Shown here one piece after another: positions 7,267-60,125 of a DNA stretch of 64,000 bases. The stretch lies in assembly GCA_010093605.1 (NCBI GenBank), contig MU004181.1, positions 2,294,001-2,358,000 on the forward strand, read 5' to 3'. This DNA comes from Lophium mytilinum (Eukaryota). Position numbers and translations under genes: made by a program. Position 1 is the first letter of the stretch; each line of letters opens with the position of its first letter. The notes under the pieces were generated by a model. It searched no databases and had not been told where the DNA came from. It saw only the letters and a program-made list of their open reading frames with translations.

Positions 7267-10200
7267 CTATCTCAAAGCAGCCAGCGCCGCCTCAGCCTTC
7301 TTCTCCGCCTCCAATTCCCTCTGTCTCTCCGCTTCAGCCGCTTCCTCCTTCTTCCTGGCCTCCTCCCTTTCTAGCTGATCCTTCCTCCGGATCGCAATAT
7401 CCTTAGGCCTGTAGTCGCTAAAGGCAACCTTCAGAACCTTCTCTATGATCCAGCATCCCGCATAATCTATAACCATGACCGTGGTGAGCTTGATCTTGAA
7501 GTCGGTCGTGAAAGGCACGAGCCTCAGCTTCTCGTTGATCTCGGGAATGAACTCGGTCGCACAAGAGAAGGCGACACCGGCGACGAGGACCAGGCCCCAG
7601 TACATGCCCTTGTTCTCGCGAATGGACTCGCGGAAAGGCCTTCCTTGGTAGTTGATTGCAAAAGTGGAGATTTGCTGGATAAGCTGGAGGAGATAGATCG
7701 CACTGTTGAGGAGCGATGGTTCGAATTCGCCTTCGAGGTCAACATTGTCTTGTTTTCTGCGGAATATTAGCGAACGCTTTGGACTGGAGTAGTATCTAGA
7801 CTTACGGCTCGAGGAGTTGGACATATTGAGAAATGTAAATCAGAGTACCGATATGAATAGCGAACTGTCCCAGGACTGAACCAATGATGTAGAAGTTGAA
7901 AATATTGTGCTGAGGCCGTTCTTTCGACAACCCCTCGACAGACTGTGATAAAACTTAGCATCATGCTTGACCACACAAAGAATGGACGACTTACCCTAGC
8001 ACGAGAAATAGAAAGGAAGCAAACACTCATCATCATGCCGCTAATAGTAACTTGCCCATCCCCAAACTTAATGCCATCCAAATAGAGAACGCTCAAACTG
8101 TAAGCGCTGATGAGACAGTTCAATGCTAGAATCTTGTACATCTGAATGGTTGCAACAAGAGTGCACCTTCCTTGACGAATGATGTTCGGAATCGCTATGA
8201 CGTTTGCTAGCTTGCTTGTGAATGGTGCAGCAACAGAGGCATCTCCAAGCTTGATCGTTGGCGGTTCACTGTCATCTAGCTCTTGCTCCATCATGGATTG
8301 TGTAAACTTGTCAGCCATGCTCTGAGCTTTCTGTTGGGCGGGTGTGTTGGGCTGAACAGCTTGTGGGGTGGCCTTGGTCACCGCGCCATTGTGGTCCTTA
8401 GTATCCGTGCCGTTCGCAATGGCGGGAGGACCACCCTTCCTTAAAGCCTCTCGTTCCACAGCCTTCTCGTAGTGGGGATTTCCAGGACCAGGAGGATAGA
8501 GTTGTGCAATCATGATGGGAACAGGAGGAGCTGGTTGATTGAAGCGTGCCATGAGCTGGCATTGTTTTTCGTAGACCTCTTTCATCTTGGTATTTCTGAA
8601 ATGATCTGAGATCTTTTCTAGGTCATCTCGTGTTCCGTTCAGAAGAGCAACGCCAATGTGTGCTTGCTTGAGAGCACCGACATCGTTCGTCCCGTCGCCG
8701 CACATAAGAGTTGTATAGCCACAGTCCCTGAGTCCGATGAGAATATCCTCTTTCTGCTTGGGAGAAACACGAGCATACACCCAAGCGTGACGCATGAGCT
8801 GAAACCAAGCTGGTTGATCTGTGAATTTGGCTAACGCAAATCCAGTGACACAAATGTCCTTTGTCTTCAGGATTTCCGGGTCAAGTGGCTTCGTGGGATC
8901 GACGGCAATACTGACTTTGTCGTCAATGCTGCGCCACACAAGGTTTTGGCCAGATTCGTCATGCTCGGGCGCGTCCAAGACAAGACAGTCCCGGTCGACG
9001 ATCTCGACTTCACGAGCCACGTGTACTGCGGTGAGAGGGTTGTCGCCAGTAATCATTACGACGCGATGGCTGCTTTCGTTGAGCATCCTTACGGCATCCT
9101 TGGCGTCATCCTTGAGAGGACACTGCAAGATCAAGAATCCGGCGAAAGTCAAGTTAGATTCCACTTCTTCTCGCTTGAGATCGTTGATGCGGTTCATGCC
9201 GAGCTCTGAGTCGTGGGTAATGAACTTATACGCAAGAGCGAGTACGCGCCCACCATTCCTAGTGAAGTACTTGAACGTCTCTTCGTATTGCGGTGGTACG
9301 TTGACTAGCATCTTCCGAATCGTCTCTGGGGCACCTTTAACTCCAGCAAAAGTACTCTTGGTCTTCTTCTGCGTCTTCTTGTTTGTGAGAAGTACGGTGG
9401 CTACAGAACTTTGTCGCTTGAGAGCTGAAGAAAATTGGAAGCGTCGTCGAATCTGTACCAGATCGGCGTGAAACGGCTCCTGATTGGCTTTTGCCGAGTG
9501 CTTGGTTGTAAGTGTATCATGAGCACCAACAGTCCATCCGAGAGAAGAAATGGTTGCCTTTTCCATGGGTTCACCGACGATTTCTCCTTCATCCAGTTTG
9601 ACCAACGCATGAGCAGTGGCGAGAACCAGAGTAGTTTCGGTACCCACTTCAAGGACCGGTGTGACCTGTGTATGGGCGCCATCTACGGTCTTGATTCCGC
9701 TCTGACCCAGTGTGAGACCAGCAATGCCATCTACGACGAGATCTTCGCCAGTCAAGGTTCCAGTCTTATCAAAGCACGCAACGTCAACTCTACCAGCGAA
9801 CGGTATTCGGAAAGGCTCAGTACAGAAGATAGCATACTTGCTCAAGGCTGCCAGACTGGTGTTGACCGCGAGACTGAGCTCCATCGGTAGTTCCGGAGGC
9901 ACGACGCTGGTGATAATGAGGACACAATCCAGCATGAGCTTAGAACGCTTCCTGTCCCTGGCAACACCTTCCTTCCACACATACCAGGAGGCGGCAATCG
10001 CGAAAATCAAAAGGAACAGAATGAAGAATAGGGCTTCGACGTTATTGGCGGATACTCGCTCAGTGGAGTAGATCATAGTCCGCACAAGGCTTCCTTGGCT
10101 GGTTTCGAACCCAGTCTTGACGACAACTGCGATTGCGCCCTTGTCCGGAGGTGGAGGTACACCGGACGAGAGCCTGGGAACCACTTCGGAGCCATCTTCA

Positions 10201-11270
10201 GCAGATATCCCGTGAGTGACTTGTAGGACCTTAGTTCCTCCATAGAGGAAAGCGTTTTTGTCCAATCCTTCCGGTTCGATCAACGCGTCTGCGGGGCGTA
10301 GTTGGATTGAGTCTTTGAGCACTGGCGTACTCTCTCCTGAAAGCATGGCCTCGTTTACGATAGCAGACCCTTCGATTAGAATCATGTCGCATGCAACACC
10401 ACTATCTTCCTTCGTCCTTCCCACTGATACCAAGTCACCAGGTAGCAGTTTATCACTTTGTATTTCCTCCCATTTCTTCTTCCTGTATACGAGAAGGTCG
10501 TAAGGCTTGATGCTCATGCCACGGAACTCGTTCAAAGTACGTTGCCGCTGCCAGACTACAGTACTCTCAAAGACCACCAGCATGAATAGCGTGAACAACG
10601 AGTAGTACCAGTAGTCGTCCAGCATCCATAGTCCTACACAGAAGACCTGGAACACGAAGAACGGCGCGACAGAATGTTCCTTGAACAACTCTGTGAAGGT
10701 AGGGACGGGGATATCGAAAGAGTTGTCTCCATAGTGTTGCTGAAGGCGCTCGATATCGGCAGGGGAGGCATGACCACGCGATTGCTGGAATGTCTTCAGG
10801 GTGGGCTTCGGTTCGGCATCGATGGCGTACGCGAGAGGCGCGAAAGAGCCTTGCTCAGGGTCGTATAGAAACCGGCGTTTCTGGAACAAGAATGACAGGT
10901 TCTGCTTCCCTCCAACATTGTCCCGGTCGAGGGAACATATTTCAGCGGATCCTGCGTTCGCCACGGGAATAACCTTGATGAGTTTCGCAGATCGGACGTC
11001 GCGGGCTTTGGTGGACGTGAAGAAAGACTTCAAGTTCACATTCCAGTGTGTGCTAAGCCATACTAGCGCTTGGATCGTGAAGATGCCGCCTGACCAGACG
11101 AACGTCCATTCTTGTGACTGGAGGTGCTTTTCGTATCTTTCCGCCGAGAGATAGACGGCGAAGAATGCTGGCCAAACGACTAGGAATGGCCAAATATACG
11201 TGTGGAGGGCAAGCGGTAGAGGATCATGCAGACTCGCCGCCTTGATCTGCGGGTTGTCGACGAGCGGCAT
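7267..11270 (-). CDS. SPF1: P5A-type ATPase (ER transmembrane-helix dislocase)
   Basis: DKTGTLT phosphorylation site, PPELPMEL (P5A signature), SGES, MITGDNPLTA, GDGTNDVGALKQAHIG. Two short introns near 7.76-8.0 kb. ATG at 11270. Confidence 0.97.
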
Positions 11271-11367
11271 GGTTGAGGGTTGTCGGTGGATGGCGATGTT
11301 TAGAAATGTCACAATGTGTCCCTTGACCTCATTGCCAAGGCGGCCAACGGACAATCCCGTCCGAGAA

Positions 11368-11974
11368 ATTTGTCGAATTCAAAATAGCACAGAACGCTTG
11401 GCGCTTTTTTTTCGGCGTTCCTCATCAAAATTTGGAAGAGAATCGCGAGGAGCACCACCTAATTAAGTGTTACTCTCTTAACAGCCCTTAGATAATATAA
11501 AGGAAGGTTATATATGCGTGCTCTAGGGCCTTTTACTAATATTTTCTAGTATTAAGCATTCTAAGCCTTACGCAGGAGCTCCCCCGGGCCTATAATACTA
11601 GAATGTTGCAGTACTTAGAACTCTATCTACATCTTAAAGTCTTAGTATTATTTACTAGAGATATCTATACTCCTTCTTCTTATTATAACCTTTATACTTA
11701 GTAACTAGAGGGCTCTTCTTAGGTATAAAGAAGACGTGTTCCTAGGTAGAATAGGTAGTAGTATCTAGAATAGTTATTCTAGGGCGCTATAGTACTAAAA
11801 AGCCTGCTAAATAGCTATATATTATGCCCGAGGAGCCTTGCTTATAACTATTTAGCGGACGTTGAAAGGTTGATAGTTAATTAGGTAGTATTCCACGCAG
11901 CTCTCACACAAATTTTGGTGAGGAACGCCGAGAAAAAGCGCCAAGCGTTCTGTGCTATTTTGAATTCGACAAAT
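11368..11974. mobile_element. Non-autonomous DNA transposon/MITE relic with ~100-bp terminal inverted repeats and a RIP-like AT-rich interior
   Basis: 11368-11466 (atttgtcgaattcaaaatagcacagaacgcttggcgc...cctaattaa) is the reverse complement of 11877-11974. The interior is visibly rich in TpA and poor in CpA/TpG. Confidence 0.88.
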
Positions 11975-12519: not shown

Positions 12520-13328
12520 TCAACTCACAGCCGTCAAGTTCACCCTACCAATCCATCCCCCTTCCACTAACCTCTGAACACTCTTTTCCATTTGAAACTG
12601 CACGCCCAGTCCCACCTGACCAAACCACGGCGCGATAGGGCCAGCCAGCACCACAAAAGGTACTTGCACCTCATACACATGATACTATGTTGGTCATCAG
12701 AAATTTGCTATACTTATAGCTATCAAAGCAACGGAAAGAGATACGAACATTCCATGGAAACTCCGCACCGGGCGCCGCGTCCAAATTAGTCGGCGGCAGC
12801 GAACGCTGCGCATACGGCGCGCTAGCGGGCGACATGAAATTCCCGCGTTCACTTCCGAAGCGATCAAGAAGCGTACCGCGCGGAAGCGTCATATTTGCAG
12901 CAATGGGCATGCCGGTAGTGCTAGTTTGGAAGCCATTGAGCGACGGGTAGACGAAGAAACCGGTAGCGGGGTCCGTGTAGCGGGCGAGGAAGTCGCCGGG
13001 ACACAGGCCGCCGAATCGGTGGTAGGACGAGCTGCTGCCTGCCAGTGAGGCTAGCGGAAGGGCGGTGGGGAGGGAGACAGGGCCGAGGCGGGGGTCTCCG
13101 CAGATGTAGAGGGTCGAGTTGTCCGTGGATTTCGTGCCGGCGCAAAAGTTGGGGCAGTGGGAAGGGTCGGTATCGATCTGAGGATGTTAGGATAGGATGG
13201 GATTGGCAACTTGGTCGAAGTTTACTCACATCTCGACGATTTAGAGAATGTCGCTGATGAGTGGGAACGGGTGCAGCAGCTGAAAACAATACGAAGAGCA
13301 AAGAAATGAGAACGAGTGAACTGATCAT
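12520..13328 (-). CDS. Secreted TNT-domain (DUF4237) NAD(P)+ glycohydrolase, fungal surface NADase family
   Basis: Signal peptide [20 protein letters not shown]; after splicing two introns, reads CGDPRLGP...RFGGLCP...[26 protein letters not shown]...YHVYEV...[16 protein letters not shown]; stop at 12520. Confidence 0.88.
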
Positions 13329-25054: not shown

Positions 25055-27848
25055 ATGAAAATCCACCCATCAGCTCAAGGAATATCTCTTGCGATCAGGG
25101 CGTTGGATAGCTCAATCACCCCTGCTCTTACCGATAAATCAGCTCTGGCAGCTGCTGAAGTCGTTCGTCATGTGGCAAGTTCTGATGAACACATCTCCAG
25201 CGAAGCGTTAGCTAAAGTGTTCAGCTTACCGACTTGCTCAAACGCCAAGGCCCAGCTATAAAGCTGTTACAAGATCTCATCGCGGATGGAGAAGGCCTGG
25301 AAAGAGACATCCTTGACGTGACTGGGAAGAAATCAGCAGATAATGTGCAGGCACCCCTGCCGAAAGACTTCGAGGGTCTTGCAGAGAGACATGAACAACT
25401 GAACAATCGCATCGTCGATCTCTGCTCCCATCTATCCGCCACCGACAACCGTCACGCGCCGGCTCTACTTCGACGAGCAGCGGAATGGGAGCACGCGTAC
25501 TACGCCAAGATCCCAGCCGTGCAAGCCCCATTATACGGTGAAGAAGATGGTAGTGTCGAAAAGAAAGAGTCGGCTCCGGCACTCTCCAAAGATTACATGG
25601 AGAAATTCCTCATTTCGCAAAGAGGCAACCTTAAAGTCTCTTCCTTCGCACCTATGACTGGTGGGCATGGAAAGCAGACATACGTCTGTGATGTCGAGTA
25701 CGACGGCGGGAAGACTGAGGAAATCGTGGTTCGAAAGATGGATCCGGCACCAATCGTTTTGAGGAGTATGTATTTGGTCGAGCAAGAATACTTCTTCCTC
25801 AAATGCCTCTCCAAAACCGACTATCCATGCCCTAGACCATTCGACCTGGCAAGGAAGGACGACGGCATTGACGGAAGCTTCTTCACTATGTGCCGAATGC
25901 CAGGTGCCGGGGCCTCGATGTTTCTGAAGACCGGCGAAAAGAGCTTTTCGGAGAAGATGCTGTTGCAGCTTGCGGAGTTGCTTGCCAAGCTCCACGCAAC
26001 TCCTCTGGACGTGTTCGCTGAGTATTTCGAGGTGTATGAAACGCCGGAAGCGCTCGCGGAGACTGTCGAGGAGCGGTTCCGAAGGAGTATTCAGGGCTGG
26101 GCGCAGTATCTGGTCGATGTGCAACATCTGCCATCTCCCTATATGACTTGGATATTTGACTGGTGCGTGATGCTATTTCCGTATAGAACTAGGGATATGT
26201 TGTCCTCCTATTCTTCATGTCCTTCAAATTATCATCTTCACACTAGTCACTATTGTGGTTTCAATTATATGGCTAACTGAATCAGGCTCAAACGGAACAT
26301 ACCTAAAGACACACGACGCCCCGTCCCTACGCACGGCGATTACAGTGTGCACAACGTACTAGTCGAAGGCGACAACATAACAGCAGTGCTTGACTGGGAA
26401 TGCGCAGACTTTGCCTGTCCAGAGCTCGATCTCGCATACTGTCAACCTCTCGTATCGCAAGCAATGGATTGGGAAAAGTTCGTTCACCACTATAAGAACT
26501 GCGGAGGACAAGAGATCAAAGAAGAAAACTTCGCATTCTGTCAGGCTTACTCTGTCCTGCGAGTTGAACTGGCATTCAATCGAGCAACCTGCGTAAGTAA
26601 TCCAGCATCTTTGTGGAGCACATCGCTTCTAAATCTGACAACTGGCAGAACCTTCAAAGCAGTCTCAACGAGGACATCCGCTTCCATATGGTCGAGCTCG
26701 GTTATCAGGCAGTATTCATGGGTATGGGTCTTACCTACACAGCGCCTTCGTCCGAAAAGCCGGTAGAGGGAATCGCCCAAGCTAATAGAGCTTCCAAGGG
26801 CTCCAATAGCGAAGGTTTGAAACCGAACGGCACATCGAAAGTAGATCCTCCCACAGAGCTTCAGCTAGACGGAGGGAAGACACTCAAAATCCATGGAGAC
26901 GAGGCCAACGTCCCTCAGCGTCCTGGTCCGTCCGCAAACTGGCAGGAAAGCTTTGTACTGGTGTGGTGGGACGACGAGAATAACGTTGGTGGATTCCACC
27001 GTCTCGGGCATGAACCCAACGTCGAAAGCGGGGCTGTCGCAACTTTATGGACGAACGTGATAACTCCGGATGGCATCTTCAAACGGACGCAATCGATCCT
27101 GCTGCGTGAGAAAGATCGTCTTTCCAGTGGTTTCGGTAGCGGTGATGACACTTGTACCGCAGAGTTCATCAACGGCGAGCATATCTGGACCATCAACGAC
27201 ACGGACACAACCGCTCGACTTGTCTTCAAAGACCATGGTCCCAATGTCGATTGTTTCCCGAAGAAGGGCGCGATGTCGACCGAGTTCGCGACAGCACATT
27301 TCGATGTTCCTGGGAACGTCTCTGGAACATTGACCATGAAGGGTAAAACCTACACCATCGCCGGCCTGGGTCTCCGTGACCACGCCTGGGGCCCCAGAGA
27401 TTGGGGTAATACCGTGTACTCCCACCGCTGGGTCTGCGGCACATCTGGTCCCTCTTTCTCATTCGTTGCCGTCTCCTGGCATTCTACCAACGATGCGATT
27501 GCCAATTTCGGATGGGTTGTTCGAGATGGCGAAGTTACCTTAGCTTCCTCCATTGATCTCCTCACGTACATGGAGGTGGACAGCTGTATCAACCGCGGCG
27601 GGCGTGTGAAGTTCACGTTGACCACCGGCGAAGTGTTAGACGTGGAGTGCACTGCTGTCCCGGCGAAGTGTCTAGTGTGCTATCATCACGACATCGCTTG
27701 CGTGGATCGGATTTGCAAGTTTACGTGCGCTAGCAATGGTACTAGTGGATTTGCGAACTTTGAAAGCAGTTCGAACATTCAGTTTGGGAAGAGGAAACCC
27801 GTCGCGCTGGTCGGAGGAGTGATTGAAGATGGTTTCACGCCGGCATGA
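25055..27848 (+). CDS. Fusion protein: helical N-domain + APH/choline-kinase-like phosphotransferase + C-terminal beta-rich domain (AttH/CrtC/tocopherol-cyclase-like, bacterial DUF7064/7065-type)
   Basis: GGHGKQTY, VVRK, THGDYSVHNVL and LDWE kinase motifs. Intron 26593-26648 (GTAAGT..CTGAC..CAG) joins in frame to the 26613-27848 ORF carrying WQESFVLVWWD and GLRDHAWGPRDW. Confidence 0.85.
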
Positions 27849-35971: not shown

Positions 35972-36102
35972 GCTTCGGCTGGTCTTGGGCCTCCTTTCTA
36001 CTGGACAAAATTGCATGGCATTGTTGGTGTATCTCAGCGTGATTTTTTTCTCTTGTTTCCAAGCTACACAAATGGATAACTCAATGAGAACGTATCGAAC
36101 TA

Positions 36103-36353
36103 CAGTGCCTTGCCATAGATACCCGTACACCTGCTTACCATTGTTTGAGAGCCCCCGACGTACTATCAGAAACCGGAGACAGCGGATATACTTTCGATCT
36201 GTGTACACCATGCTGACACTGTCTGGAGGACCCGCGCAAGTTTACTAGTAGTCCAAAATGCCGCAATTTCTCTCTTATTCGGAACGCTGAAAATACACTG
36301 GGGCTCTTCAAGCAGTGGTAAACGAGTGTACGCATTTCTATGACGACTCATTG
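36103..36353 (-). mobile_element. MITE family A, copy 1 (Tc1/mariner-type, TA target duplication)
   Basis: TA|CAGTGCCTTGCCATAGATACCCGTACAC ... GTGTACGCATTTCTATGACGACTCATTG|TA; homologous to 54719-54967 and 59361-59610. Confidence 0.88.
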
Positions 36354-36388
36354 TACAGTTGATTGACTGAGAAATGAAGTGAAAGTAA

Positions 36389-39300
36389 CTACCCGTTGAT
36401 GATCTTGTGCTCTCGAAATGTGGTGATGAGCCTGGCGACGGCTCTGTGTCCCTCCTTCTTTGCTAACCCCGTCGCAATCTCGTATTGCGTGTCACCAGGC
36501 AAGCTATCCTCATCGTTATCACCATGGCATCTCCAGCCTGGATTCTTGCGTGGTTCCACGAAGGTATCCCAACATGACTCCTGAGCCGAACCATCCTGCT
36601 CTGGATTCTGATTTTCCCCCTGGCGTTCATGTTTCTTGTTCGGATATCGCAGAAGCTCTAAATCAGCACCAGCATTCAGCAACAGTTGAACCACATCGAG
36701 TCTACCATGTTCCGCAGCCAGTTCCAAAGCAGTCCTCGTTTCACGAAAGCGGTACGTCTTCTTATAGAAGCCATACGTCCATGTGCTTCTCCAGGCAAAA
36801 CCAGAAGATACAATATCGATGTCAGTTGTTACTCCTGGTTGGATCAGCATTCCGGCGATTCTGACATGCCCTCCACTGGCTGCTAGGTGCAGTGCCGTAA
36901 GTCCTCGAACACCTAAATGCCCGTGGACGTCGGCTCCAGCATTGAGAATGGTCTGAACCATCTCAGGATTACCAGTCTTCACAGCCTTCTGCAATGCAGT
37001 GAGATCTGCATTCTGTTCCTTATAATGATAGCGGCAGGGTCTGGCATTTACGTTGGCTTGGTAGCGTAGAAGGAGTCTGACTGCTTCTAAGTCTCCTCGA
37101 GAAATCGATCGTACCAAAGCTGTGATGCCGTACCCATTATCGAAGGGGATGTTTGGACTAGCGCCGCTGTCTAAGAGCATCTGGATTGCATTTGTGTGTT
37201 TGGAAGCGGCCATTTCTAGTGGCGTCGCAAAGCACTGGTACTCTTCGCTTCTTCCATCATAGTCGCAAATATGTCGGCGATTGAGAGCACCGCCAGCCTT
37301 CAAAAAAAAGTCAATCAGCTCGGTATTACAAGAGCCAATAGCCGCCAGGAGCGGTTGACCGTAAGAGTCGAACATTTCGTCGACATCCCTGCTCGTTGAA
37401 ATTGCTTGGAGAAGAATTCCCAAAGTATGCGTGTCTCGGTTGAAAACTGCAGTAGACAGAGCTCCAGGATCGATCGGCGTGGCGCCGAGCTCGAGAAGTC
37501 GGGTGATTGATGAGGTATCCATCATAAGGACTGCTTCTCTCAATGGACTACTACCTCCGGAGGATTTGTTTACGTTCGCGTTATTATTGAGGAGTAACTG
37601 AACGATATTATGACGCCCGTTTCTGATCGCGCAGATAAGGAGTGTGCTCTCACGGTTTCCACCGGCGAGATCTACATCCGTGCCCCTTTGTAGAAAGCTT
37701 TCGACCATCTCGAGGGGAACATGAATGTCTTCGTCTTGCATTGCCTCGAGGAGGCAGTGTCCGGGCGGATCTGTGATTCTTCCTAGGATGAAACGAAATA
37801 TTTCCAGCTCATCGCATTCGATTGACGTTTGGAGAGCAATTTCTTCACACTCCTCGAGTACACCAGCGTCCAAAACCCTGTCTAGTATCAATTGAACAAG
37901 CCAGAGTTTACCCGTTCTCACAGCGTCTTGCAAAAGGCTGGGATCGTCATATGCTACTCCCGAGCCGAGAAGTACTCGAATGAAGACATCATTGTCGGTG
38001 TTGATTGCCGCTTGCAGTGGTGTTCTAAAGCTATAGCCCCTTTGAACAGTAGGTTTGGTGTTGGCACCGAGACCAAGAAGGTAGACTACCATGTCCAACT
38101 CCTCGTTCTTAATGTACTTAATGAGGGCAGTCTCTTCCCGCCAATCAACAGAGTCAATATCAGCACCAGCCTTGAGAAGCTCTTCAACAAGACTTTTATT
38201 TCCTGTCTCGGCTGCCGTGGGAAGAACCCCGCGGAGAACACCGTCAAAGCCTTCAAAGTTGAGGCGTGCTCCCGCGCCCCTGAGGAGTCCGATTAGAACT
38301 GCATGATCCTTCTGAATGGCCAATTCGAGTGCACACTCTGTGGAGGCGAACTCCGTTTCGTAGTAAGAGTTGACGTCTGAGCCTGCGCGAAGAAGAATCT
38401 GGACAACTTCTAAGTTACCACATTCCACCGCAGCTTCTAAAGGAGACATCTTGTCGTAAACTCTCAAGTTGACATCGACGTTTTCTGCAACTAGCAGTTT
38501 CACCAAGCCGACCTGCCCAGTACGTATTCCCGCTCGTAGAGCATATGATAAGACCTCGGATCGCCGTTCCATATTGCTTGAAACATACATGATGAGTAAT
38601 CTGATGAGCTCATCAATGTTGCGCATCGAAACCAACTTCTCGACGTGATTAAATTTGATGAGATGTTCAATATCGAAGTCCATTCCAGCAATTAAGCATC
38701 GGATCAGTTTTACGTTCGCAGTTTTCAAAGCGGGCTCCCAAATTGCTTCAGCCAAGGCGCACATAGTAGGTTCTTTAGATCTAAGCAGCCTTTCGAAGTG
38801 CTTGAGGTTGTCTGGGACACAGCACCACCGCAAAGCTAGTTCCTCGTAGGGGTTTCTCGCACCATAAGCGAAAGGTAGAAACTTGTTGGATAGAACGTAG
38901 ACAGCTAGTTTGAGGAGATGGAAAGAGCTCGGCCTCGATTCAGTGAGGCATGATTCTCTCGACATGTAATCAGGGCCGACGTCATACTCTTCTGGCGGTT
39001 TGACAGCTGCACCGCTGTCTCGGACTTCACTTCGTTTGTGATGGTGGATGAGTTGCGAGAGTGTGTCTTCCTGGAACACCCCGGTGCAGTTGTTGTTCGA
39101 ATTTGTGGTGAATGCGGAAGAAGGAGCGAATTCGGAAATAGCAGTTAAGTTCAGCCACGTCTGAAACCTAACACAAGGTAAGACGAAGATGTTATCCGCG
39201 ATGAGTGTGTCGACGATTTCGGAATGTGGTGTACGAATCGCGACCCCAAGCGGTGTTTTGGGAGAAGGAGCTGTAAACAAGTAAGCCGAGAACATGCTAA

Positions 39301-39816
39301 TGTGACAAATTCTCGCCATATATCTGTGTACGCGCATTCGCCACTTCCCGATCTACTACTATGCCTCCTCTTGAACAACGGATTGTAGTATACAAGTTGT
39401 TGACCCAACACAGTAGGTATGTACGGATAACATACCTGATATGAATAGGTCGGTAGCAGAGACATAGGCACAGGGTCGAGTGATTGCTTTCTTGACCTTT
39501 TGCGGAGACACAAGTTCACCATCCATGTACACTTCACTCTCCTTGCCTTCTCTTTTCCGCTTTCGTAGCTTGTGGCCGATCGCTTTCCATTGATCCGACT
39601 TCTTGTATTTCTTGAGCTGCCATAATTTGAACTGGGACTCGTATTGACTCTTCCTAGGATACCGTGAGCACTTTGACCTCAGTACCGCCAAAATCTGGTA
39701 CCTTACGTTGCATTAAACTTTTTCTCTTTACTCATGAATTCCATCACCTCCTTCAGAGTATGTGATACGTAAAAGTCCTTTATGGTCTCCTTGTGGAGCT
39801 CCCAAGGAAGCGACAT
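36389..39816 (-). CDS. Clr5-domain + multi-ankyrin-repeat protein
   Basis: Exon 1 MSLPWELHKETIKDFYVSHTLKEVMEFM..KFNAT; exon 2 KSQYESQFKLWQLKKY (Clr5 signature); then APSPKTP and more than 10 ankyrin repeats (TALQKAVKTGN, TALHLAASGGH, TALELAAEHGRLDVVQLLL). Confidence 0.9.
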
Positions 39817-51573: not shown

Positions 51574-53783
51574 TCATGAGACATTGACAGAAGTACTCGC
51601 GTCCATGAACCGATGCACATCATGAGCATGACTAGGGCACCGGCAACATATCCTCGCCGCAGTCTTCGCCCCTTGAGGCTCACTAACAGACACGACGCCA
51701 TCCTCCTCCGCCTCAAGCACCGGATCCATAAGACCTTCACCACCCCCATACACCAGTCCTTTCTCCGTCAACCCCAGATCTGGTACAGCTACTAGCCCCA
51801 CAAAGCTAGCTATAAGAAACGGATGCTCCAAGATTCCCCCGAGAACCTCCATTACCTTCTTATCTAGGGCTATAGAATCATCCCTTACATCCTCCCACGG
51901 CGCGCTGGACATACACCCTGCAACATCCAGCCGCACAGCCCCCAGCACCTCTCCTTCACACACAGCAACCATACCCCCACCAAGCTCTGCGATCGCCTTC
52001 GCCGCATGAGCGATCTCGTCATCGGAAGTACCGACGATAACGAGATTCTGGTTTTCACAGTTCGTCGTGCACCCGATCGCGCCTTTCTTGAGGCCGAAAC
52101 CGCGGACGTAGCTGATACCGCGGCTTTTAGTCCCGTGATGGCGGTCGATCACAACGACTTTGAGGATGTCTTTTGCGGTATCGCAGAGGAGATGATGGGG
52201 ACTGGTTGGGGATGTGGGGAGTTTTGCGTGGAAAGCGCGCTTAAAGTAACCGTCGAACATTTCCATGCCTTGGACCCAGGCGCTGGTCTGGTCTGAGCTG
52301 CGGGGGAAGATGTGGTAGGCTGAAGGGGAGAAGAAGTAGGGGTCTAGGTGGATGGTATTGAGGGTGAAGGGGGGCACGGGGTCGGTGTTTTTGAAGGTTG
52401 GGCGGTTGTTTTGGGCGACTATGGTACCGTTTACTATGACGGTTTCGGGACTATGGTCGACGATTAGGTTCGTCAAACTTGATGAATGGTGGAACACTGA
52501 CCGAGCATCTTCCAGTTTATCAAGTATAAGTAAATCTGCAAGCTTAGCCGGTGTGACACTGCCGATCAAATGGTCAAGCCGATAATAGGAGGCAGCGTTC
52601 AAAGTCGCCATCTTGTAAGCTTTTAGCGGCGGAACTCCAAGTCGGATTGCCTCTCGGACATGGAAGTCGATATGGCCGGTAGCATCGAAGTCTTCTGCAA
52701 GCTTGTCGTCGGCACAGAAAGAAATGTAGTCTAACCCGTCCTTGTAAGAAGCGAAATCGCTGAATACGCTCTCGATGTTGGAGTTCATGCTACCGGACAT
52801 TACTGTTAGCATCATTCCAAGTCTAAGGCGCTCCAACACGTCTGCGGGCTTGTGTGCGTTGTGGTCGTCTCCGATACCGCCCTACGTGCATTGAGATCAG
52901 TCAGAGGCCTCATATTTTCACATTTGGGACTATTCTTACAGCACAGTATGCCCAAAGCGGCTCATTTTCGAGCAAGGCAGTATGACCCGTGATACGCTTC
53001 CCAGCACGTAGAGCAGCAGCCTGTTTTTGAGCGGAGGCAAGGTCTAAGGAAAAAGGATTTGATTCTCCGAGTGTAGCTGCTTCAGTGGAAGATACTCTTT
53101 CGCAAATTTCGGCAGTTGATACAGAGGTACCACCAAGCTCGATATTTGGACCACTCATTGGGATCTTGTGGGAGACTTGACGAAATATACGAAGCGGAGT
53201 CGATGTAGTCCCTGAAATGTGACGACGTGAGAAAGATTATCTTAAGCTAGGAAATGGAAGAAGCGTACCCATGAAATCCATGCCTCGACCACCAAGGACC
53301 TAGTAATGATATTAGCTACCCATTCAGTGATAGGATTGTTAGAAGATAGAGTCAGATCGACTCTCGAGTTCACCATACATTTGCAATACAATTGGCATCT
53401 GCTAAAATTGTAGTAGTCCCTCTCGGCACACTCAATCTTGCTAATTCTCCTGGCACTAATTTTGTGTATTCGACATGGATGTGAGTATCTATGAAACTCG
53501 GGGAGATAAATTTGCCTCGAGCCTCCAATTCATTATCAATCGCAGGGAAATGATCCCACGGTGTAATTGCCGCGATGTGTCGACCGGAGACGACAACATC
53601 TCGGTCTAGCAGTTCCCCAGTATGAAGAGCCAATATAGTGCCATGACGGATGATGAGAGAAGGTTTCGAGGTCCCTCGGGCTACGAGACGCAAATTGACC
53701 AATTCTTCAGCGGTGATGGAAAGATGAGCTCCTGTGGCTGAGGACGGGTGGATTTCGACGGGCCGATTCTCCGAAGATTCCAT
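51574..53783 (-). CDS. Bacterial-type (AdeC/amidohydrolase) adenine deaminase homologue with altered active-site motifs
   Basis: FIDTHIHVE, PRGTTT, ITGH, DDH, FCADD, MATLNAA, GFGLKKGAIG motifs plus C-terminal adenine-deaminase domain; about 4 introns. Start may be 53783 or 53807. Confidence 0.85.
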
Positions 53784-54401
53784 GGCTGGACCGCGAGCTG
53801 TCTCCATCTCCTCTTCATGCACCCATCATCACTTCTTCATTGTAGACCGACGGCCTCTGGACCCCATTGTGTCAATTGCATTACGATTGCACCATCGACA
53901 TATCGCCTTTTCCGCGGTCTCCGCTCCGGCACTTGCTGCGGAGCTCTTGAAAGCGATAGATCGATCGGGAGTGTTTGCCGACGGATACTGCCACCCTATG
54001 CGGACACAATAATGTGCCCAGTCTACGTTCCTTGAACGTTAAAAGGTGAATCGCAAAAGGGAGGCTTTCTTTTTGTCTATCTGCTGGCGAAGGATTCTCT
54101 GGATGCTCACGAATTTTCTCTCTTGCTTATGCTCTATTCATATGTTTTGGATGCAAAGGTAACAAAATAGAGCTCATAGTATGAGGGAAATGGACGATAA
54201 GTCTAGTAGGGGTCTCTTGATAAGGCTCCCGGCTGTATGCATCCCTATCGTATCACAGCAGATTTCGTGACACCCCCAGGGCCTCTTTGAATCATGCTAG
54301 CGCTGATAATGAAGCCTCGTCGTACTCGATATGCCTTCAAAGAGCACTGCTGGTCTACATAAACCCATGAATCGACTGTAAGCATCACAATAAACTCACA
54401 A

Positions 54402-56907
54402 TGGCGGAAGAGAAGGGCTTTACATCCTCGTACGCTCAGGACTCTGATGCTGTGGGCACGGCTGAGCCATATGGCTCTACCTGGCAAAGACTCAAGGCGC
54501 GAGCTCGAGTACCTGTCAGCGAGAGCTCATACGCCCCAGGAGACTTGAAATGGAGCAACAAAGACCTTGACCCGATACCTCTAGGTAAGTGAAGGTTCTT
54601 CAAGTCAGTATATCAGCTAATCAGTCTTCAAGAATTTCAAACTTGGCGTACGTAAGATTCCATTATTCTACAACTATTCAGGTGCTCCTGGAGATGTGTC
54701 CAAGCCTCCACTTCAGTACACTGCGTCGTCATAGATATGCGTACACTCGTTTGCCGCTGCGTGAGGAGCCTCATAGTATTTTGGGCATTCCGAATGAGAG
54801 GAAAGTTCGGCACTTTGGATGACTAGCAACTTGCGAGGCTACCCCAGACAGCGTCAGCAGGGTGTACGCAGATTAGAAGTTTATTCGCTGTCCCTGAGTT
54901 CTATTAGTACGCTGGAGTCCTCCAGACAGCGGCAGAGAAGTGTACGAATATCTATGGCAAGACACTATAGCTTTGGACACCCACTCCGGCTAAGGTGGTG
55001 CCTAAAACGCGAACTGTGTGACACTCAAGGAAATTGGCCCCCCAAGGATCTCTCCCCCCCTCCCTCACTCTCTCTTTCCGTTCCCCATCGATAAAACCTA
55101 TAGATAACGGTACTGACGCCTATAGGAACATATAATTTTGTCACCTATTGGATCTCCGATGCTTTTGCAGTGAGCAATTGGAGAATCGGGAGCTCGCTCA
55201 TCGCCATTGGTCTGTCTTGGAAGCTCGCTTTGGTAGCCGTAGTGATAGGTAACTTGGTAACTGCCTTCATTGTTACATACAATGGTGTCATCGGTGCCCG
55301 TTTGCACATTCCATTTCCTGTCCAAGCTCGATCCGCCTTTGGATTCTATTTTGCCTATGTTATGGTCATTTTCCGGGTAATCATCTCAGTATTCTGGTAT
55401 GGCATCGGGACATATACCGGCGCTGAATGCATTCAATCTATGCTCTTCGCCATCTGGCCGCGCTTCCGGAACGTTCCAAATCACCTCCCCGAGTCTGCAA
55501 ACATCACGACGGGCTTCATGATCTCCTACTTTATCTACTGGGTTGTAGTTCTACCGTTCCATTACATTCCGCACCACCAGCTTCATTGGTTCTTTACGTT
55601 CAAGGCGATCGTTTCCCCCATTGCCGGGTTCGCCATCATCGGATGGATTGTTCATTCGACCGGCGGTGGCAATGCAGTGTTTGCGTACGGCAACCAACTC
55701 CATGGCCCAAAGTTAGGATGGGCATTCATGAGCGGCGTAAACGCAATGATTGGGAACTTTGCCACACTAGGAGTGTATGTATTTGCGCGCCCTCCCTTCT
55801 ACAGTGACTGGCCATAAGTCTGTGCACACTAGTTTGTCACTGCTAGGGGTACCCCTACGGGTTTTCCGTAACCTAGGCGCAATGTCGAATCCTGCGTAGC
55901 GTACTATGAGCTGCCTCTTAACCGAGCAGCTTTGTGGCCTCGAAGCCGCCCCTGACAGTGGTATTCAGCTGCCAAAATAGCGGCGCTTCAGCAGCAGCAT
56001 ATATGTGCCCAGACTTATGGCCCAGTACTAGACTGGTCACTAATTCGGAAAACAGTAACATGAACGACTTCGCGCGGTACTCCAAGAAGCCGAATAGTCC
56101 TTATGTCCAGCTCATCATTATCCCAATCGTTTTCATCATTATGATGCTTTTCGGTATAATTGGCGCGAACGGTTCAAGGATTCTCTATGGCGAAGTCCTC
56201 TGGGATCCTCTGTACGTTCTAGTCGTTCTCGTAATATTCCTTTCGAGCATATGCTAACGTATACGACTACTTCCAGTCTCATTATCAACCACTGGACCTC
56301 ACGTGGTGGACGTGCTGCAGCATTCTTCTGCGCCCTCGCTTTTTTGATTGCTAGCATCGCCATCAATATCTCGGCCAACAGTATTTCCGTGGCCGTGGAT
56401 CTCACCACTCTTTTCCCGAAGTACCTGAATCTACGAAGGGCTCAGTATATCTGTGCTATTCTCGGCGCATGGGCAATGACACCCTGGAACATCCTCGCCT
56501 CAGCGGAATCACTCCTCACGTTCATGGACGGCTACTCCATCTGGCTAGCCCCGATCTCCGGCATCCTGATCTCAGACTACTGGATTGTGCATCGCCAGCG
56601 GGTGAGCGTACCTGAAATGTACCGACCGCACGGAATCTACGCGTACGAGAAGTATGGCACGAATTGGCGTGCCGCGGTCGCATTCGTGATCGGGTTCGTC
56701 CCACTGCTACCTGGGTTTGCAAAAGCGGTTACCAGCAGTATCAACGTCTCGGAAGGTGCGAGCAACTTGTATTCGCTGGGTTACTTCTATGGCTTCATCG
56801 TCAGCTCTGGATTGTATGTGCTTTTGAGCAAGATTTGGCCGCCGAAGAGCCAGTATACTGGGTTCACTATCGACGAGAGTCTGAATGAGGTAGCTTCTGA
56901 CTTCTGA
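54402..56907 (+). CDS. NCS1 nucleobase:cation symporter (Fur4/Dal4-like)
   Basis: WSNKDLDP, YWISDAF, NMNDFARY, NISANSIS, DLTTLFPKYLNLRR, PWNIL, ISDYW, NWRA motifs; 4 introns, including a 15-nt micro-exon at 54633-54647. Confidence 0.93.
54719..54967 (+). mobile_element. MITE family A, copy 2, inside NCS1 intron 2
   Basis: TA|CACTGCGTCGTCATAGATATGCGTACAC ... GTGTACGAATATCTATGGCAAGACACTA|TA; aligns with the other two copies. Confidence 0.87.
55802..56030 (+). mobile_element. MITE family B, copy 1, inside NCS1 intron 3
   Basis: TA|CAGTGACTGGCCATAAGTCTGTGCACAC ... GTGCCCAGACTTATGGCCCAGTACTA inverted termini; homologous to 57006-57381. Confidence 0.8.
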
Positions 56908-57005
56908 AGGAGGAAGAGTGCTCGGGCAATGGCTTGTTCAGATTCGTTCACGGCAGTGTAGAAAGCTTTTTAGTAGATGCCGCCAATCGCTTAGGAGTGA
57001 CAATA

Positions 57006-57381
57006 CATTGATGATCATTATTCTGTGCACACTTGTTTAACATTGCCCGGGGCACCCCTATAGGGTTTCAGAAATACAGGCACGATGTCAAGTTTCATTA
57101 AGTGGAATCCAGGCTACCTCTTGGCTGACCCACTTCATACTGGCGGGGGCACCCCTTGCAGTGCTGTATAGCTTTTAAATCAGCACTCGAGATTGCTAGC
57201 ATCCGTGTTGCTAGACCTGTAGCTATTCCAACCAGCGTCAAGGCGCACGTGTCAGATATCAGGCTGCCTTTTGGTTAATTTACTACTTGCTAGCGGGGGT
57301 ACCCCTTACAGTGCTATCTAGCTTCCAAAGTTGCACCAAGCAGTGGCATACCAGTGTGCCCAGACTTGTAGCCTGTCACCG
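57006..57381 (+). mobile_element. MITE family B, copy 2, with internal ~150-bp direct duplication
   Basis: TA|CATTGATGATCATTATTCTGTGCACAC ... GTGTGCCCAGACTTGTAGCCTGTCACCG|TA; gcgggggYaccccttRcagtgct block repeated at ~57143 and ~57293. Confidence 0.78.
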
Positions 57382-59360: not shown

Positions 59361-59610
59361 CATTGACTCGTTATAGGAATCTGTACACTCGTTTACCACT
59401 GCTTGAGGAGCCCTACAGTATTTTCAGCGTCCCAAATAAGAAGAGAGTACGATATTTGGGACTACTAGTAAACTCGCGAGGCTACTCCAGACAGCGTCAA
59501 CATGGTGTACACAAGCTGAAAGCGTGGCCGCTACCCTCGGTTTCTAGTGGTACGTTGAGGCCCCTCAAGCATTGGTGGGGAAGTGTACGGATATCTAAGG
59601 CAAGGCACTG
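59361..59610 (+). mobile_element. MITE family A, copy 3
   Basis: CATTGACTCGTTATAGGAATCTGTACAC ... GTGTACGGATATCTAAGGCAAGGCACTG|TA; left TSD reads TG. Confidence 0.85.
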
Positions 59611-60125
59611 TACCTAGGTGGGATGGCAAACAAAAACGTCCGATGTAAATCAAGCTTGAGGTTGGAAATTGAGGTCGATTGGGCACGCGAGCTGCCGTCT
59701 TATAAAGAACAGGACGAATTGATACGCCCACAATATATGAAAGGGATAAAACAGTTCTTCGGAGTACATCTCCAAGCTTTATTCACCCATCACCCGCGCC
59801 CTGCAGTTTGACGGACCACCTTCACCAGCTTGCCACGACGCTAAATGTTCACTCTTCTGTGCTTGACGAGCTTACTTCTACCTTCTTTTCTTCCACCGTG
59901 CCGCAAACCACGTTCACTGTCACAGCGTCATTTGTATTACAGCGCGTTAAGACGCGACATTTACTGGCGTCTATCACAAGACAGCGTAATCAAGTAGGTC
60001 AGAGTCGTCTCTTACTATCCAGTTCACCAATTCCGCGTTGCGGTGCTGTACTTGCTTTGCTGCGAGGGCTATAATGATCCAAGACTGACTATGAAAAGAT
60101 TGCACGCGCCGCCTTTGCTGTAGTC

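Follow-up and report, generated by a model that had tools for sequence, protein, structure and literature searches.

A head-to-head pair of an AdeC-like amidohydrolase gene of apparently bacterial ancestry and a Fur-type NCS1 permease gene in Lophium mytilinum

Two divergently oriented genes were resolved within a 64,000-nt stretch of Lophium mytilinum contig MU004181.1 (positions 2,294,001 to 2,358,000, hereafter the window), one encoding an AdeC-like amidohydrolase and the other a Fur-type NCS1 permease (Table 1). The gene models match database proteins P0327 (662 aa) and P0336 (544 aa), respectively, in every letter. In a 5639-nt contig from public run X1 (presumed RNA) all eight introns of the two genes are missing and each predicted exon is joined to the next precisely at the modelled border, which shows that the two genes are spliced as predicted. 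If run X1 is RNA, as presumed, the locus is a conserved, expressed two-gene unit. Read-through of the fourth intron of the AdeC-like gene would add 17 codons that are missing from the orthologue P0001 in the alignment, and an ATG at 53783 offers an alternative start yielding 654 aa.

Pfam searches of raw exon translations placed Adenine_deam_C (E 2.1e-42) and Amidohydro_1 (E 5.1e-12) on the minus strand, the architecture of AdeC/cog1001 proteins such as Atu4426 (PDB 3nqb) and E. coli Ade, with no match to A_deaminase (PF00962) on any exon of the gene. The fungal adenine deaminase Aah1/NadA belongs to the adenosine-deaminase family, a different fold family from AdeC; its nominal reaction matches the annotation of the window enzyme, which nevertheless lacks the A_deaminase domain. 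The initial annotation's description of a prokaryotic AdeC-type gene carrying introns in a fungus is borne out by this domain content and by the four introns skipped in the X1 contig.

Table 1 Features of the AdeC-like/NCS1 locus, in window coordinates.
Feature	Position	Strand	Remarks
AdeC-like amidohydrolase gene	51574..53807	-	5 exons, 662 aa, stop included
AdeC-like CDS exons	53807-53379, 53299-53269, 53211-52940, 52881-52502, 52450-51574	-	
AdeC-like intron 1	53300..53378	-	79 nt, GT..AG; skipped in X1 contig
AdeC-like intron 2	53212..53268	-	57 nt, GT..AG; skipped in X1 contig
AdeC-like intron 3	52882..52939	-	58 nt, GT..AG; skipped in X1 contig
AdeC-like intron 4	52451..52501	-	51 nt, in frame, GT..AG; skipped in X1 contig
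HIHVEYT	53463..53483	-	HxH metal ligands retained; EYT where canonical has ESS
DANC	53388..53399	-	stands where canonical has DPHE
TLGESNP	53054..53074	-	bridging Glu of binuclear centre retained
ITGHTA	52976..52993	-	metal-ligand His retained
DDHN	52858..52869	-	metal-ligand His retained; Asn for the following Glu of canonical DHE
MSGSMNSN	52777..52800	-	stands where canonical has REGSxxxN
FCADDK	52702..52719	-	Asp pair retained (metal ligand and general base, per excerpts of PMC12133300)
NCENQN	52045..52062	-	stands where canonical has [AS]HD[SA]HN
CCRCPSH	51628..51648	-	start of subfamily-specific C-terminal Cys/His tail
Shared divergent intergenic region	53808..54400		593 bp; six HGATAR at 53954, 54077, 54195, 54218, 54245, 54304
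Fur-type NCS1 permease gene	54401..56907	+	5 exons, 544 aa; head-to-head with AdeC-like gene
NCS1 CDS exons	54401-54584, 54633-54647, 55126-55774, 56056-56211, 56277-56907	+	
Micro-exon of permease gene	54633..54647	+	15 nt; restores conserved EFQTW block at permease N-terminus (orthologue alignment)
Repeat with inverted arms	54716..54970		within 478-nt permease intron; arms 43 nt

On the plus strand, Transp_cyt_pur was detected in raw exon translations with E-values of 6.6e-47, 1.7e-34 and 8.1e-09 (Pfam), and P0336 passes TIGR00800 (370.1 against a cut-off of 353.1), the NCS1 subfamily model; the closest known carriers are the Fur-type FurE, FurA and FurD of A. nidulans and the bacterial hydantoin permease Mhp1. 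The allantoin permease is its nearest NCBIfam equivalog, although at 195.7 bits P0336 falls below the allantoin-permease cut-offs, and the cytosine permease model gave only E 0.0043 on a single exon, placing P0336 nearer the allantoin/uracil type than the cytosine (CodB/Fcy) type. Its closest solved structure is the hydantoin permease Mhp1 (6.2e-21), and its orthologue group is confined to fungi with the AdeC-like gene and a few others. The X1 contig carries the 15 letters of the permease micro-exon between the two sides of the joint. Further copies of the repeat in the permease intron occur at 36100-36356 (77%) and 59368-59615 (72%).

The intergenic region holds six HGATAR sites, where 1.6 would be expected from the density across the window (Poisson P 0.006), a modest enrichment, and these include both GATAAG sites, at 54195 and 54218, that had already been reported for the shared promoter. 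We infer that the gene pair may be under nitrogen regulation.

Motif conservation was assessed in 54 subfamily rows, of which 22 are fungal and 32 bacterial, with 133 canonical proteins of the AdeC family as the reference. Canonical-type members are only about 29–34% identical to the window enzyme. Metal ligands were assigned from the lists in the available excerpts of PMC12133300 and PMC8643624. The HxH, bridging Glu, two His and Asp pair of AdeC/cog1001 are all shared with the window enzyme, which thereby retains all six binuclear-centre ligands; across the 54 subfamily rows HxH is retained, GE is replaced in a single row (GK), and GH, DH and the DD within CADD are present in 54/54. The signatures listed in the initial annotation change together around this core. 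The commonest canonical forms (n=133) are HxHxESS, DPHE (91/133), [ST]DHE and [VI][AS]HD[SA]HN, so all four replacements noted in the initial annotation are real, whereas the subfamily is characterised by HxHxEY[TS], D[PA]NC, DDHN, M[SA]GSMN, TNCENQN and a C-terminal CRCPxH tail that 133/133 canonical AdeC proteins lack. Relative to canonical AdeC, DHE thus becomes DHN, REGS becomes M[SA]GS, DPHE becomes D[PA]NC and HDSHN becomes NCENQN, with the tail in addition. At individual positions, the Cys of the DANC position occurs in 98% of the 54 subfamily rows and that of the NCENQN position in 96%, both against 0/133 canonical rows; the CxCxxH positions of the tail, whose core CRCPxH recurs across bacterial loci, are occupied in 91–93% of subfamily rows and in at most 2/133 canonical rows; and DDHN is found in 54/54, while the commonest listed canonical forms (133 rows) all end in HE. 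The AdeC-like gene encodes a predicted metallohydrolase of a discrete subfamily within the AdeC (cog1001) amidohydrolases.

Two of the four replaced motifs, DPHE and HDSHN, reportedly bind an accessory third metal in Atu4426 and do not contact the substrate. In the subfamily, Asn-Cys stands for the His-Glu of the former and Cys-Glu for the His-Asp of the latter; together with the tail, these cysteines may, as a conjecture, build a new accessory site for metal that is rich in Cys. Two other changes fall at positions assigned to the substrate: Glu232 of YerA, equivalent to the Glu of DHE, is modelled to contact purine N-1 (excerpts of PMC8643624), and Arg260 of Atu4426, named as an adenine contact in the available text of PMC12133300, aligns to the Ser of MSGSMNSN in the window and is Ser or Ala across the subfamily.

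A search of 1.84 billion representatives returned a top full-length match of 796 bits and 60% identity, with the next full-length class at 339 bits and 34%; P0327 itself shares 61% identity with a Rhizobium protein (locus L001) and 29% with a canonical AdeC. It scores 336.3 bits against the NCBIfam adenine-deaminase equivalog TIGR01178 (cut-off 472.5), which is a weak test because the canonical-motif AdeC of locus L022 also falls short, at 368.5. In a 62-row tree, all 22 fungal rows fall into a single clade (SH-aLRT 100), and this clade nests together with Rhizobium, Kumtagia, Flavimaribacter and Methylocapsa (SH-aLRT 99); a tree constrained to keep the bacteria together was rejected (p-AU 0.0335, for a group chosen after tree inspection). 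Named fungal matches are confined to Dothideomycetes, Leotiomycetes and Sordariomycetes, with a patchy range. The nesting of the fungal clade in Hyphomicrobiales-type Alphaproteobacteria indicates an ancient horizontal transfer from bacteria to fungi, in which the donor would have been an alphaproteobacterium of this type and the recipient an ancestor of these Pezizomycotina. After transfer, the gene would have gained four spliceosomal introns and a host-like base composition, its GC3 of 0.52 comparing with 0.78–0.82 in the bacterial relatives and 0.49–0.69 in neighbouring fungal ORFs.

This history alters the reading of the active site, which had been described as rewired in the fungus: the replacements are instead fixed throughout a bacterial subfamily that existed beforehand and was apparently acquired by horizontal transfer. 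The phylogeny recovered the anticipated DANC/NCEN clade as a discrete group with bacterial relatives, to which the Cys/His tail and a bacterial oxygenase partner, both absent from the initial annotation, can now be added. Its bacterial affinity is all that would favour explaining the gene as contaminating bacterial DNA, a pseudogene or a relic in decay. That explanation is refuted by the identity to P0327 and by the four GT..AG introns spliced in run X1, and it is further contradicted by the host-like GC3, the fungal neighbours on both sides, the intact 662-codon frame and the signature kept in 22 fungal rows.

The pairing with the Fur-type permease, the conservation of which in fungi had been left to be checked, extends well beyond the window. 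The enzyme and permease genes are adjacent (consecutive accessions or locus tags) in 15/16 fungal genome pairs spanning three fungal classes, one of the 15 being the window's own species label; in Thozetella the two are not adjacent and sit on different contigs. The permease tree is congruent with the fungal subtree of the enzyme, including the unexpected placement of the window and Mytilinidion beside Xylariales, and a duplication of the pair in Xylariales sp. PMI_506 is seen in both trees. Head-to-head neighbours are frequent in compact fungal genomes, and together with the separate Thozetella contigs this would suit an incidental adjacency of an enzyme and a permease without a common substrate, but the near-constant adjacency and the congruent trees, with their shared duplication, make such a coincidence very improbable.

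The surroundings of the bacterial subfamily genes were surveyed by tblastn at 80 loci. A DszC/SfnB-like flavin monooxygenase lies nearby in 61/80, directly downstream in 56 of the 72 loci with room for it, and is replaced in locus L017 by a 2OG oxygenase (9/80 loci overall) that, among solved structures, matches thymine dioxygenase 5c3p best (6.9e-39). Also present are an ADA-family deaminase (59/80; TIGR01430 was passed by 4/4 tested), a Bmp/PnrA-type binding protein (48/80) and Xan_ur_permease (11/80), and in 16/80 loci a canonical-motif AdeC stands directly upstream, so that both AdeC types occur in one operon. Deaminases of three folds are grouped around the gene, and by their predicted content these are purine-type uptake operons. 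Neither the oxygenase nor the ADA partner was found within the 64-kb window, and the fungal enzyme may therefore act in a different setting. Elsewhere in the family, the canonical-type member P0207 is fused to an OHCU decarboxylase.

The explanation we favour, with a probability of roughly 0.55, is that the transferred AdeC-subfamily hydrolase and the NCS1 permease constitute an import and hydrolysis unit for a purine-related heterocycle other than plain adenine. The permease, a Fur-type NCS1 proton symporter native to fungi, would fill the role that ABC or NCS2 transporters of purine type have in the bacterial operons, and would import a purine-related nitrogen heterocycle of this presumed class. 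At its binuclear metal centre, which is retained, the enzyme would then hydrolyse this compound, either as a deamination or through an equivalent displacement by water at a ring carbon, and the products would be nitrogen and a common purine passed to ordinary catabolism. The presence of an ADA-family deaminase and a canonical AdeC beside the bacterial gene argues against plain adenine as the substrate; a different substrate, as suggested in the initial annotation, is plausible on this comparative evidence, and the interpretation given there is partly supported overall. Known Fur-type substrates, including those of FurE, are uric acid, allantoin and uracil in the available text of PMC10788122; as ureides and oxo-bases, they speak against import of an amino-base. 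The fold, family and purine context would suit an adenine deaminase equally well.

Foremost among the alternatives, though unlikely, is that the fungus has gained another adenine deaminase, of bacterial type, which converts adenine to hypoxanthine and ammonia, with the motif changes limited in effect to an accessory metal site and fine tuning and the permease importing adenine. The family, the fold and all binuclear-centre ligands are retained, the adenine deaminase 3nqb is the closest relative of solved structure (E 2.1e-39), the bacterial setting is one of purine uptake and the source annotation of these proteins is adenine deaminase. Against this, the same operon can already hold a canonical-motif AdeC or an ADA-family deaminase, Asn occupies in 54/54 rows the place of the Glu for which an N-1 contact is modelled, the Arg260 position is Ser or Ala, and the score lies under the equivalog cut-off, as does that of the canonical L022 copy. 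To our knowledge, fungal adenine uptake proceeds via Fcy- and AzgA-type carriers, not Fur-type ones. Loss of the general-acid-type Glu and of the REGS Arg/Glu would rather fit an enzyme that is no longer a deaminase and instead opens a ring or hydrolyses some other C-N (or C-S, C-O) bond. Its substrate, a purine or ureide in oxidised or modified form, would be produced in bacteria by the partner oxygenase, and the fungal version would resemble permease and cyclic-amidohydrolase pairs. The adjoining nucleobase-type oxygenases (DszC/SfnB-like or 2OG), the Fur-type permease with its Mhp1 and sub-threshold allantoin-permease affinities and the P0207 fusion all point this way, but three deaminase folds surround the bacterial gene, the oxygenase does not adjoin the fungal gene, and both characterised family members are deaminases in the available text of PMC12133300; we consider this possibility doubtful and rank it behind a second adenine deaminase.

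The preferred import and hydrolysis unit has partial parallels among known systems. NCS1 carriers are paired with amidohydrolase-superfamily enzymes for an imported heterocycle, as in the window, in the ureide systems Mhp1/hydantoinase, PucI/allantoinase and yeast Dal4/Dal1; those enzymes are ring-opening members of other amidohydrolase branches, whereas the window enzyme is AdeC-like and of putative bacterial origin. Specificities besides adenine exist within the AdeC family, since YerA (Bsu06560) and Bh0637 are described in excerpts of PMC12133300 as N6-methyladenine/N6-methyladenosine deaminases without the third metal site. YerA represents another branch that, like the window subfamily, is without this site; unlike the window enzyme, it has the pair His231/Glu232, in which the metal-binding His is still followed by Glu (excerpts of PMC8643624), and its description in the available text, which mentions no Cys tail, sets it apart from the window enzyme.

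The two genes of the divergent pair (see table) are flanked in the window by an ERV41/46-type gene and a DUF7730 gene. Sequence reading and splice-site fitting gave the AdeC-like gene five exons, separated by four GT..AG introns of 79, 57, 58 and 51 nt, and the permease gene includes a 15-nt micro-exon that is easily overlooked. The products are letter-for-letter identical to the database proteins P0327 (662 aa, starting at the upstream ATG at 53807) and P0336 (544 aa), respectively. In the public sequencing run X1, whose library type is only guessed as RNA, a fraction of 0.82 of the sampled region words was present, and a 5639-nt contig skips all eight introns precisely at the predicted borders while including the 15 letters of the micro-exon, indicating that processing of the two genes follows the models. 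This spliced contig is also continuous from 53377 to 54584, across the entire intergenic region, and gives no indication regarding a common transcript; the continuity could stem from 5' ends that overlap, from unspliced or DNA traces, or from merging during assembly.

Coordinates of the enzyme and permease genes and of other features of the window.
Feature	Position	Strand	Evidence or remark
AdeC-type amidohydrolase gene	51574-53807	-	Adenine_deam_C (E 2.1e-42) and Amidohydro_1 on raw exon translations
NCS1 permease gene	54401-56907	+	Transp_cyt_pur, E 6.6e-47 and 1.7e-34
Permease micro-exon (15 nt)	54633-54647	+	encodes conserved EFQTW block of orthologues; X1 contig letters between joint sides
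Repeat inside 478-nt permease intron	54716-54970		~250 nt, 43-nt inverted arms
Further copy of intron repeat	36100-36356		77% identity
Further copy of intron repeat	59368-59615		72% identity
Match to part of 281-nt intron	57004-57089
Match to part of 281-nt intron	57302-57373
P5A-type ATPase ORF	7770-11378	-	large, unrelated to pair
TNT (tuberculosis necrotizing toxin-like) domain ORF	12674-13186	-	Pfam E 5e-14
DUF7065/DUF7064 protein ORF	26601-27845	+	large, unrelated to pair
Long ankyrin-repeat protein ORF	36392-39352	-	large, unrelated to pair

The four motif replacements described by the initial annotation are all present in the enzyme where it placed them; its view of them as a fungal rewiring of the active site is not borne out, as the signature belongs to a bacterial subfamily that was transferred to fungi. 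Comparison of 22 fungal and 32 bacterial members of this branch with 133 canonical AdeC-family proteins from the representatives search revealed that HxHxESS is replaced by HxHxEY[TS], DPHE (91/133 canonical proteins) by D[PA]NC, [ST]DHE by DDHN (54/54 branch members), REGSxxxN by M[SA]GSMN[SD]N and [VI][AS]HD[SA]HN by TNCENQN. In the branch, the binuclear centre retains its ligands (HxH, bridging Glu, two His and the Asp pair). Its members also share a C-terminal tail with the core CRCPxH, a feature absent from the earlier motif list, in which the CxCxxH positions are kept by 91–93% of the 54 branch members, as against no more than 2 of the 133 canonical proteins.

In the related enzyme YerA, metal is bound by His87/His89/Asp283 and by His210/His231/Glu232, Glu179 serves as the bridge, and Glu232 and Asp283 are modelled as bonding the purine's protonated N-1 and N-6 (PMC8643624). 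A second paper on YerA describes a third metal site, present in Atu4426 and absent from YerA, and recognition of adenine by Atu4426 via Arg260, Asp289 and His94 (PMC12133300). In an alignment with 3nqb, the Glu adjoining the metal-binding His is Asn in the window protein, Arg260 stands opposite the Ser of MSGSMN, DPHE opposite DANC and SHDSHN opposite NCENQN. We take the third-site ligands of Atu4426 to be the His-Glu of DPHE and the His-Asp of SHDSHN; two of these four positions are Cys in the window protein, and the tail adds two or three Cys/His residues. On the basis of these two Cys positions and the new tail, we infer that the enzyme may possess a Cys-rich accessory metal site rebuilt from the third site.

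A search with the large exon of the enzyme returned 27 fungal-named proteins among the best 120, with bacterial and metagenome proteins next, at up to 57% identity. With the window protein, the Rhizobium protein of locus L001 shares 61% identity and one canonical AdeC 29%; in an alignment, Hoeflea/Flavimaribacter, Rhizobium, a betaproteobacterial MAG and an Ilumatobacteraceae MAG display its signature and tail. When the representatives were searched exhaustively, the branch fell into one 50% cluster (796 bits, 60% identity) and some fragments, followed at 339 bits and 34% identity by the next class of full-length proteins. A quick IQ-TREE analysis under a mixture model, comprising 62 rows (22 fungal, 32 of the 80 bacterial loci, picked for diversity, and 8 canonical outgroups), placed all 22 fungal rows in a single clade (SH-aLRT 100), nested with Rhizobium, Kumtagia, Flavimaribacter and Methylocapsa (SH-aLRT 99). 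Forcing bacterial monophyly was 24.6 log-likelihood units worse (p-AU 0.0335) in a 37-row subset, with the group named after the tree had been seen. The GC3 of the AdeC-like gene (0.52) resembles that of its fungal neighbours (0.49–0.69) rather than that of bacterial relatives (0.78–0.82), which together with the four introns indicates that the transfer from bacteria to fungi is old.

Linkage of the enzyme with an NCS1 permease, as proposed initially, is conserved in fungi. Permease orthologues were retrieved from the same fungi (64–92% identity on the large exon) and, counting pairs for which both genes were found, carry accessions or locus tags consecutive with those of the enzyme in 15 of 16 genome pairs, such numbers denoting adjoining gene models and not their orientation. 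Adjoining pairs occur in Mytilinidion resinicola, Lophium mytilinum (the label of the proteins identical to the window's own), Lachnellula suecica, Xylariales sp. AK1849, Xylariales sp. PMI_506 (two separate pairs), Seiridium unicorne, S. cupressi (two assemblies), Xylariomycetidae sp. FL2044, Coleophoma cylindrospora, C. crateriformis, Xylariaceae sp. FL0016, Pestalotiopsis fici (PFICI_10618/10617) and Cadophora sp. M221 (IFR05_004105/004106), the exception being Thozetella sp. PMI_491. In four further species, enzyme and permease lie on equal-sized contigs, and several enzyme carriers, among them Mollisia, Venustampulla and Phialocephala, fall outside the pair count, the permease search being word-limited. 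The permease tree (26 rows) repeats the fungal subtree of the enzyme, with Leotiomycetes as the first branch, the window and Mytilinidion beside Xylariales, PMI_506b with Thozetella, FL2044 with FL0016 and FL0804, and Seiridium, Pestalotiopsis and Truncatella together. The pair has apparently been kept together and moved together across three fungal classes. More distant relatives of the permease are found in yeasts and basidiomycetes (42–56% identity), so that, as judged from these relationships, it is a native fungal Fur-type gene lying outside the transfer; an NCS1 gene was found in none of the 80 bacterial loci.

One permease orthologue, P0284 from Emmonsiellopsis sp. PD_5 (658 aa), is modelled as a fusion with a CMP/dCMP-deaminase-fold domain that shares 46% identity with a gene next to the AdeC-like operon of Rhizobium (L001:2294-2776, -). 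Genes of this Rhizobium type occur in 8/80 bacterial loci, and the lead is weak because the fungal counterpart family is widespread in Pezizomycotina.

The bacterial scan took one genome for each species and gave 177 matching stretches, of which 107 encode a relative; 80 loci were kept (45 Actinomycetota, 30 Pseudomonadota and 5 unassigned), and neighbours were called by tblastn (E <= 1e-10, at least half of the query length). The neighbours include an acyl-CoA-dehydrogenase-fold monooxygenase (61/80 loci), an ADA-family deaminase (59/80), a Bmp/PnrA-type binding protein (48/80, with its accompanying ATPase in 38 and permeases in 38 and 35), other Amidohydro_1 enzymes (29/80), a Xan_ur_permease (11/80), an NMT1-like binding protein (11/80) and a 2OG oxygenase (9/80). 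The monooxygenase lies directly downstream of the enzyme in 56 of the 72 loci having room for it, its start often overlapping the enzyme stop; among solved structures it is nearest to DszC/TdsC (2.8e-50) and to methanesulfinate monooxygenase, and it falls under the SfnB cut-off in 3/3 tested cases. The Bmp-type binding protein closely resembles PDB 4p98. The 2OG oxygenase, nearest to thymine dioxygenase (6.9e-39), occupies the place of the missing monooxygenase in locus L017. The ADA-family neighbour exceeds the TIGR01430 cut-off in 4/4 tested cases and has as its best solved relative 3rys (7.2e-45), which we take to be an ADA-type adenine deaminase. In 16/80 loci the gene immediately upstream encodes a second AdeC, and the one copy checked (L022) has the canonical motifs HVHFESS, DPHE, SDHE and HDTHN. 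Homologues of the oxygenase and of the ADA-family partner were not found within the 64-kb fungal window.

Several further readings of this context were rejected. An enzyme–oxygenase fusion was discarded, as the 1150-aa ORF of locus L040 has acyl-CoA-dehydrogenase domains only, which marks it as a long wrong-start ORF, and P0123 (1045 aa) has none. A role as a molybdenum-free substitute for xanthine dehydrogenase received no support, XdhB being over its cut-off in 3/5 host genomes tested, and for riboswitch control Rfam at gathering thresholds gave one tRNA only in 8 of the 80 bacterial loci. A sulfur theme (DszC/SfnB likeness, TauE in 1/80 loci, NMT1/SsuA-like proteins in 11/80) is a remote idea reflecting family resemblance only, and no clear link emerged between the Cys tail and the oxygenase, which is adjacent in 51/62 loci with the tail and 5/10 without it. 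Another AdeC-family paralogue (HVHTEVT, DDHE, without HDxHN) lies near the AdeC-like gene at L028:13820-15577 (+), with a glutamine-synthetase-like gene and an HMGL-like gene as neighbours. The representatives search also returned P0207 (703 aa), a canonical-type AdeC-family protein whose fusion with an OHCU decarboxylase domain ties part of the AdeC family to urate breakdown.

The purine-related context, which contains an oxygenase and already has adenine/adenosine-type deaminases, is the main argument for the AdeC-like enzyme having another role. We favour, with a probability of about 0.55, hydrolysis of a non-adenine, purine-related heterocycle brought in by the permease. Plain adenine deamination would suit an enzyme that is built like an AdeC-family hydrolase and predicted to work like one; compared with adenine deaminase proper, however, the window enzyme fails both DHE and DPHE/HDSHN, and the equivalog score of P0327 is 336.3 against a cut-off of 472.5, under which the canonical-motif AdeC of L022 (368.5) also falls. 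We consider this reaction unlikely. Hydrolysis other than deamination, acting on an oxidised or modified base, is judged quite improbable.

Beyond the favoured hydrolysis of a non-adenine heterocycle, we tentatively consider that the branch could be a new class of enzymes built on the AdeC scaffold. In such a class, the general-acid Glu would be gone and the third site would be rebuilt as a zinc or iron-sulfur site from the Cys of DANC, the Cys of NCENQN and the CRCPxH tail. The enzyme would follow an oxygenase of nucleobases (either DszC/SfnB-like or thymine-dioxygenase-like) in a pathway for modified purines that has yet to be described. Its substrate could be, for instance, an adenine derivative that is methylated, thiolated or oxidised and stems from the turnover of nucleic acids or cytokinins, and fungi would have captured the terminal hydrolase only and wired it to a Fur permease.

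If these readings are correct, they define a well-delimited and so far uncharacterised branch within a textbook family of purine enzymes; its members bear the label adenine deaminase throughout, although they are without a residue thought necessary for that reaction. The conserved bacterial operon with its oxygenase would hint at a step in the catabolism of purines or modified bases that is not yet known, and the fungal pair would provide a clean case of domestication of a bacterial catabolic gene, with introns, ameliorated codon usage and a native transporter partner. Since the permease would set what enters and the enzyme what is converted, substrate screens of the two could be cross-checked, and interest would be greater still should the Cys site and the oxygenase-coupled pathway prove real. 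The ESM Atlas returned nothing beyond generic family names, and a literature search, with subscription papers and supplements outside its reach, found nothing on the branch, its operon or its transfer into fungi, and for PF13382/Adenine_deam_C the YerA work alone.

The 593-bp intergenic region contains six HGATAR sites versus 1.6 expected, a sequence-level hint of possible nitrogen control of the pair. None of the 24 one-mismatch window matches to TCGG-N6-CCGA, presumably the UaY-type site, and none of the 13 window matches to CGG-N6-CCG lie within this region. The repeat inside the 478-nt permease intron, further copies of which occur elsewhere in the window, is possibly a miniature transposable element.
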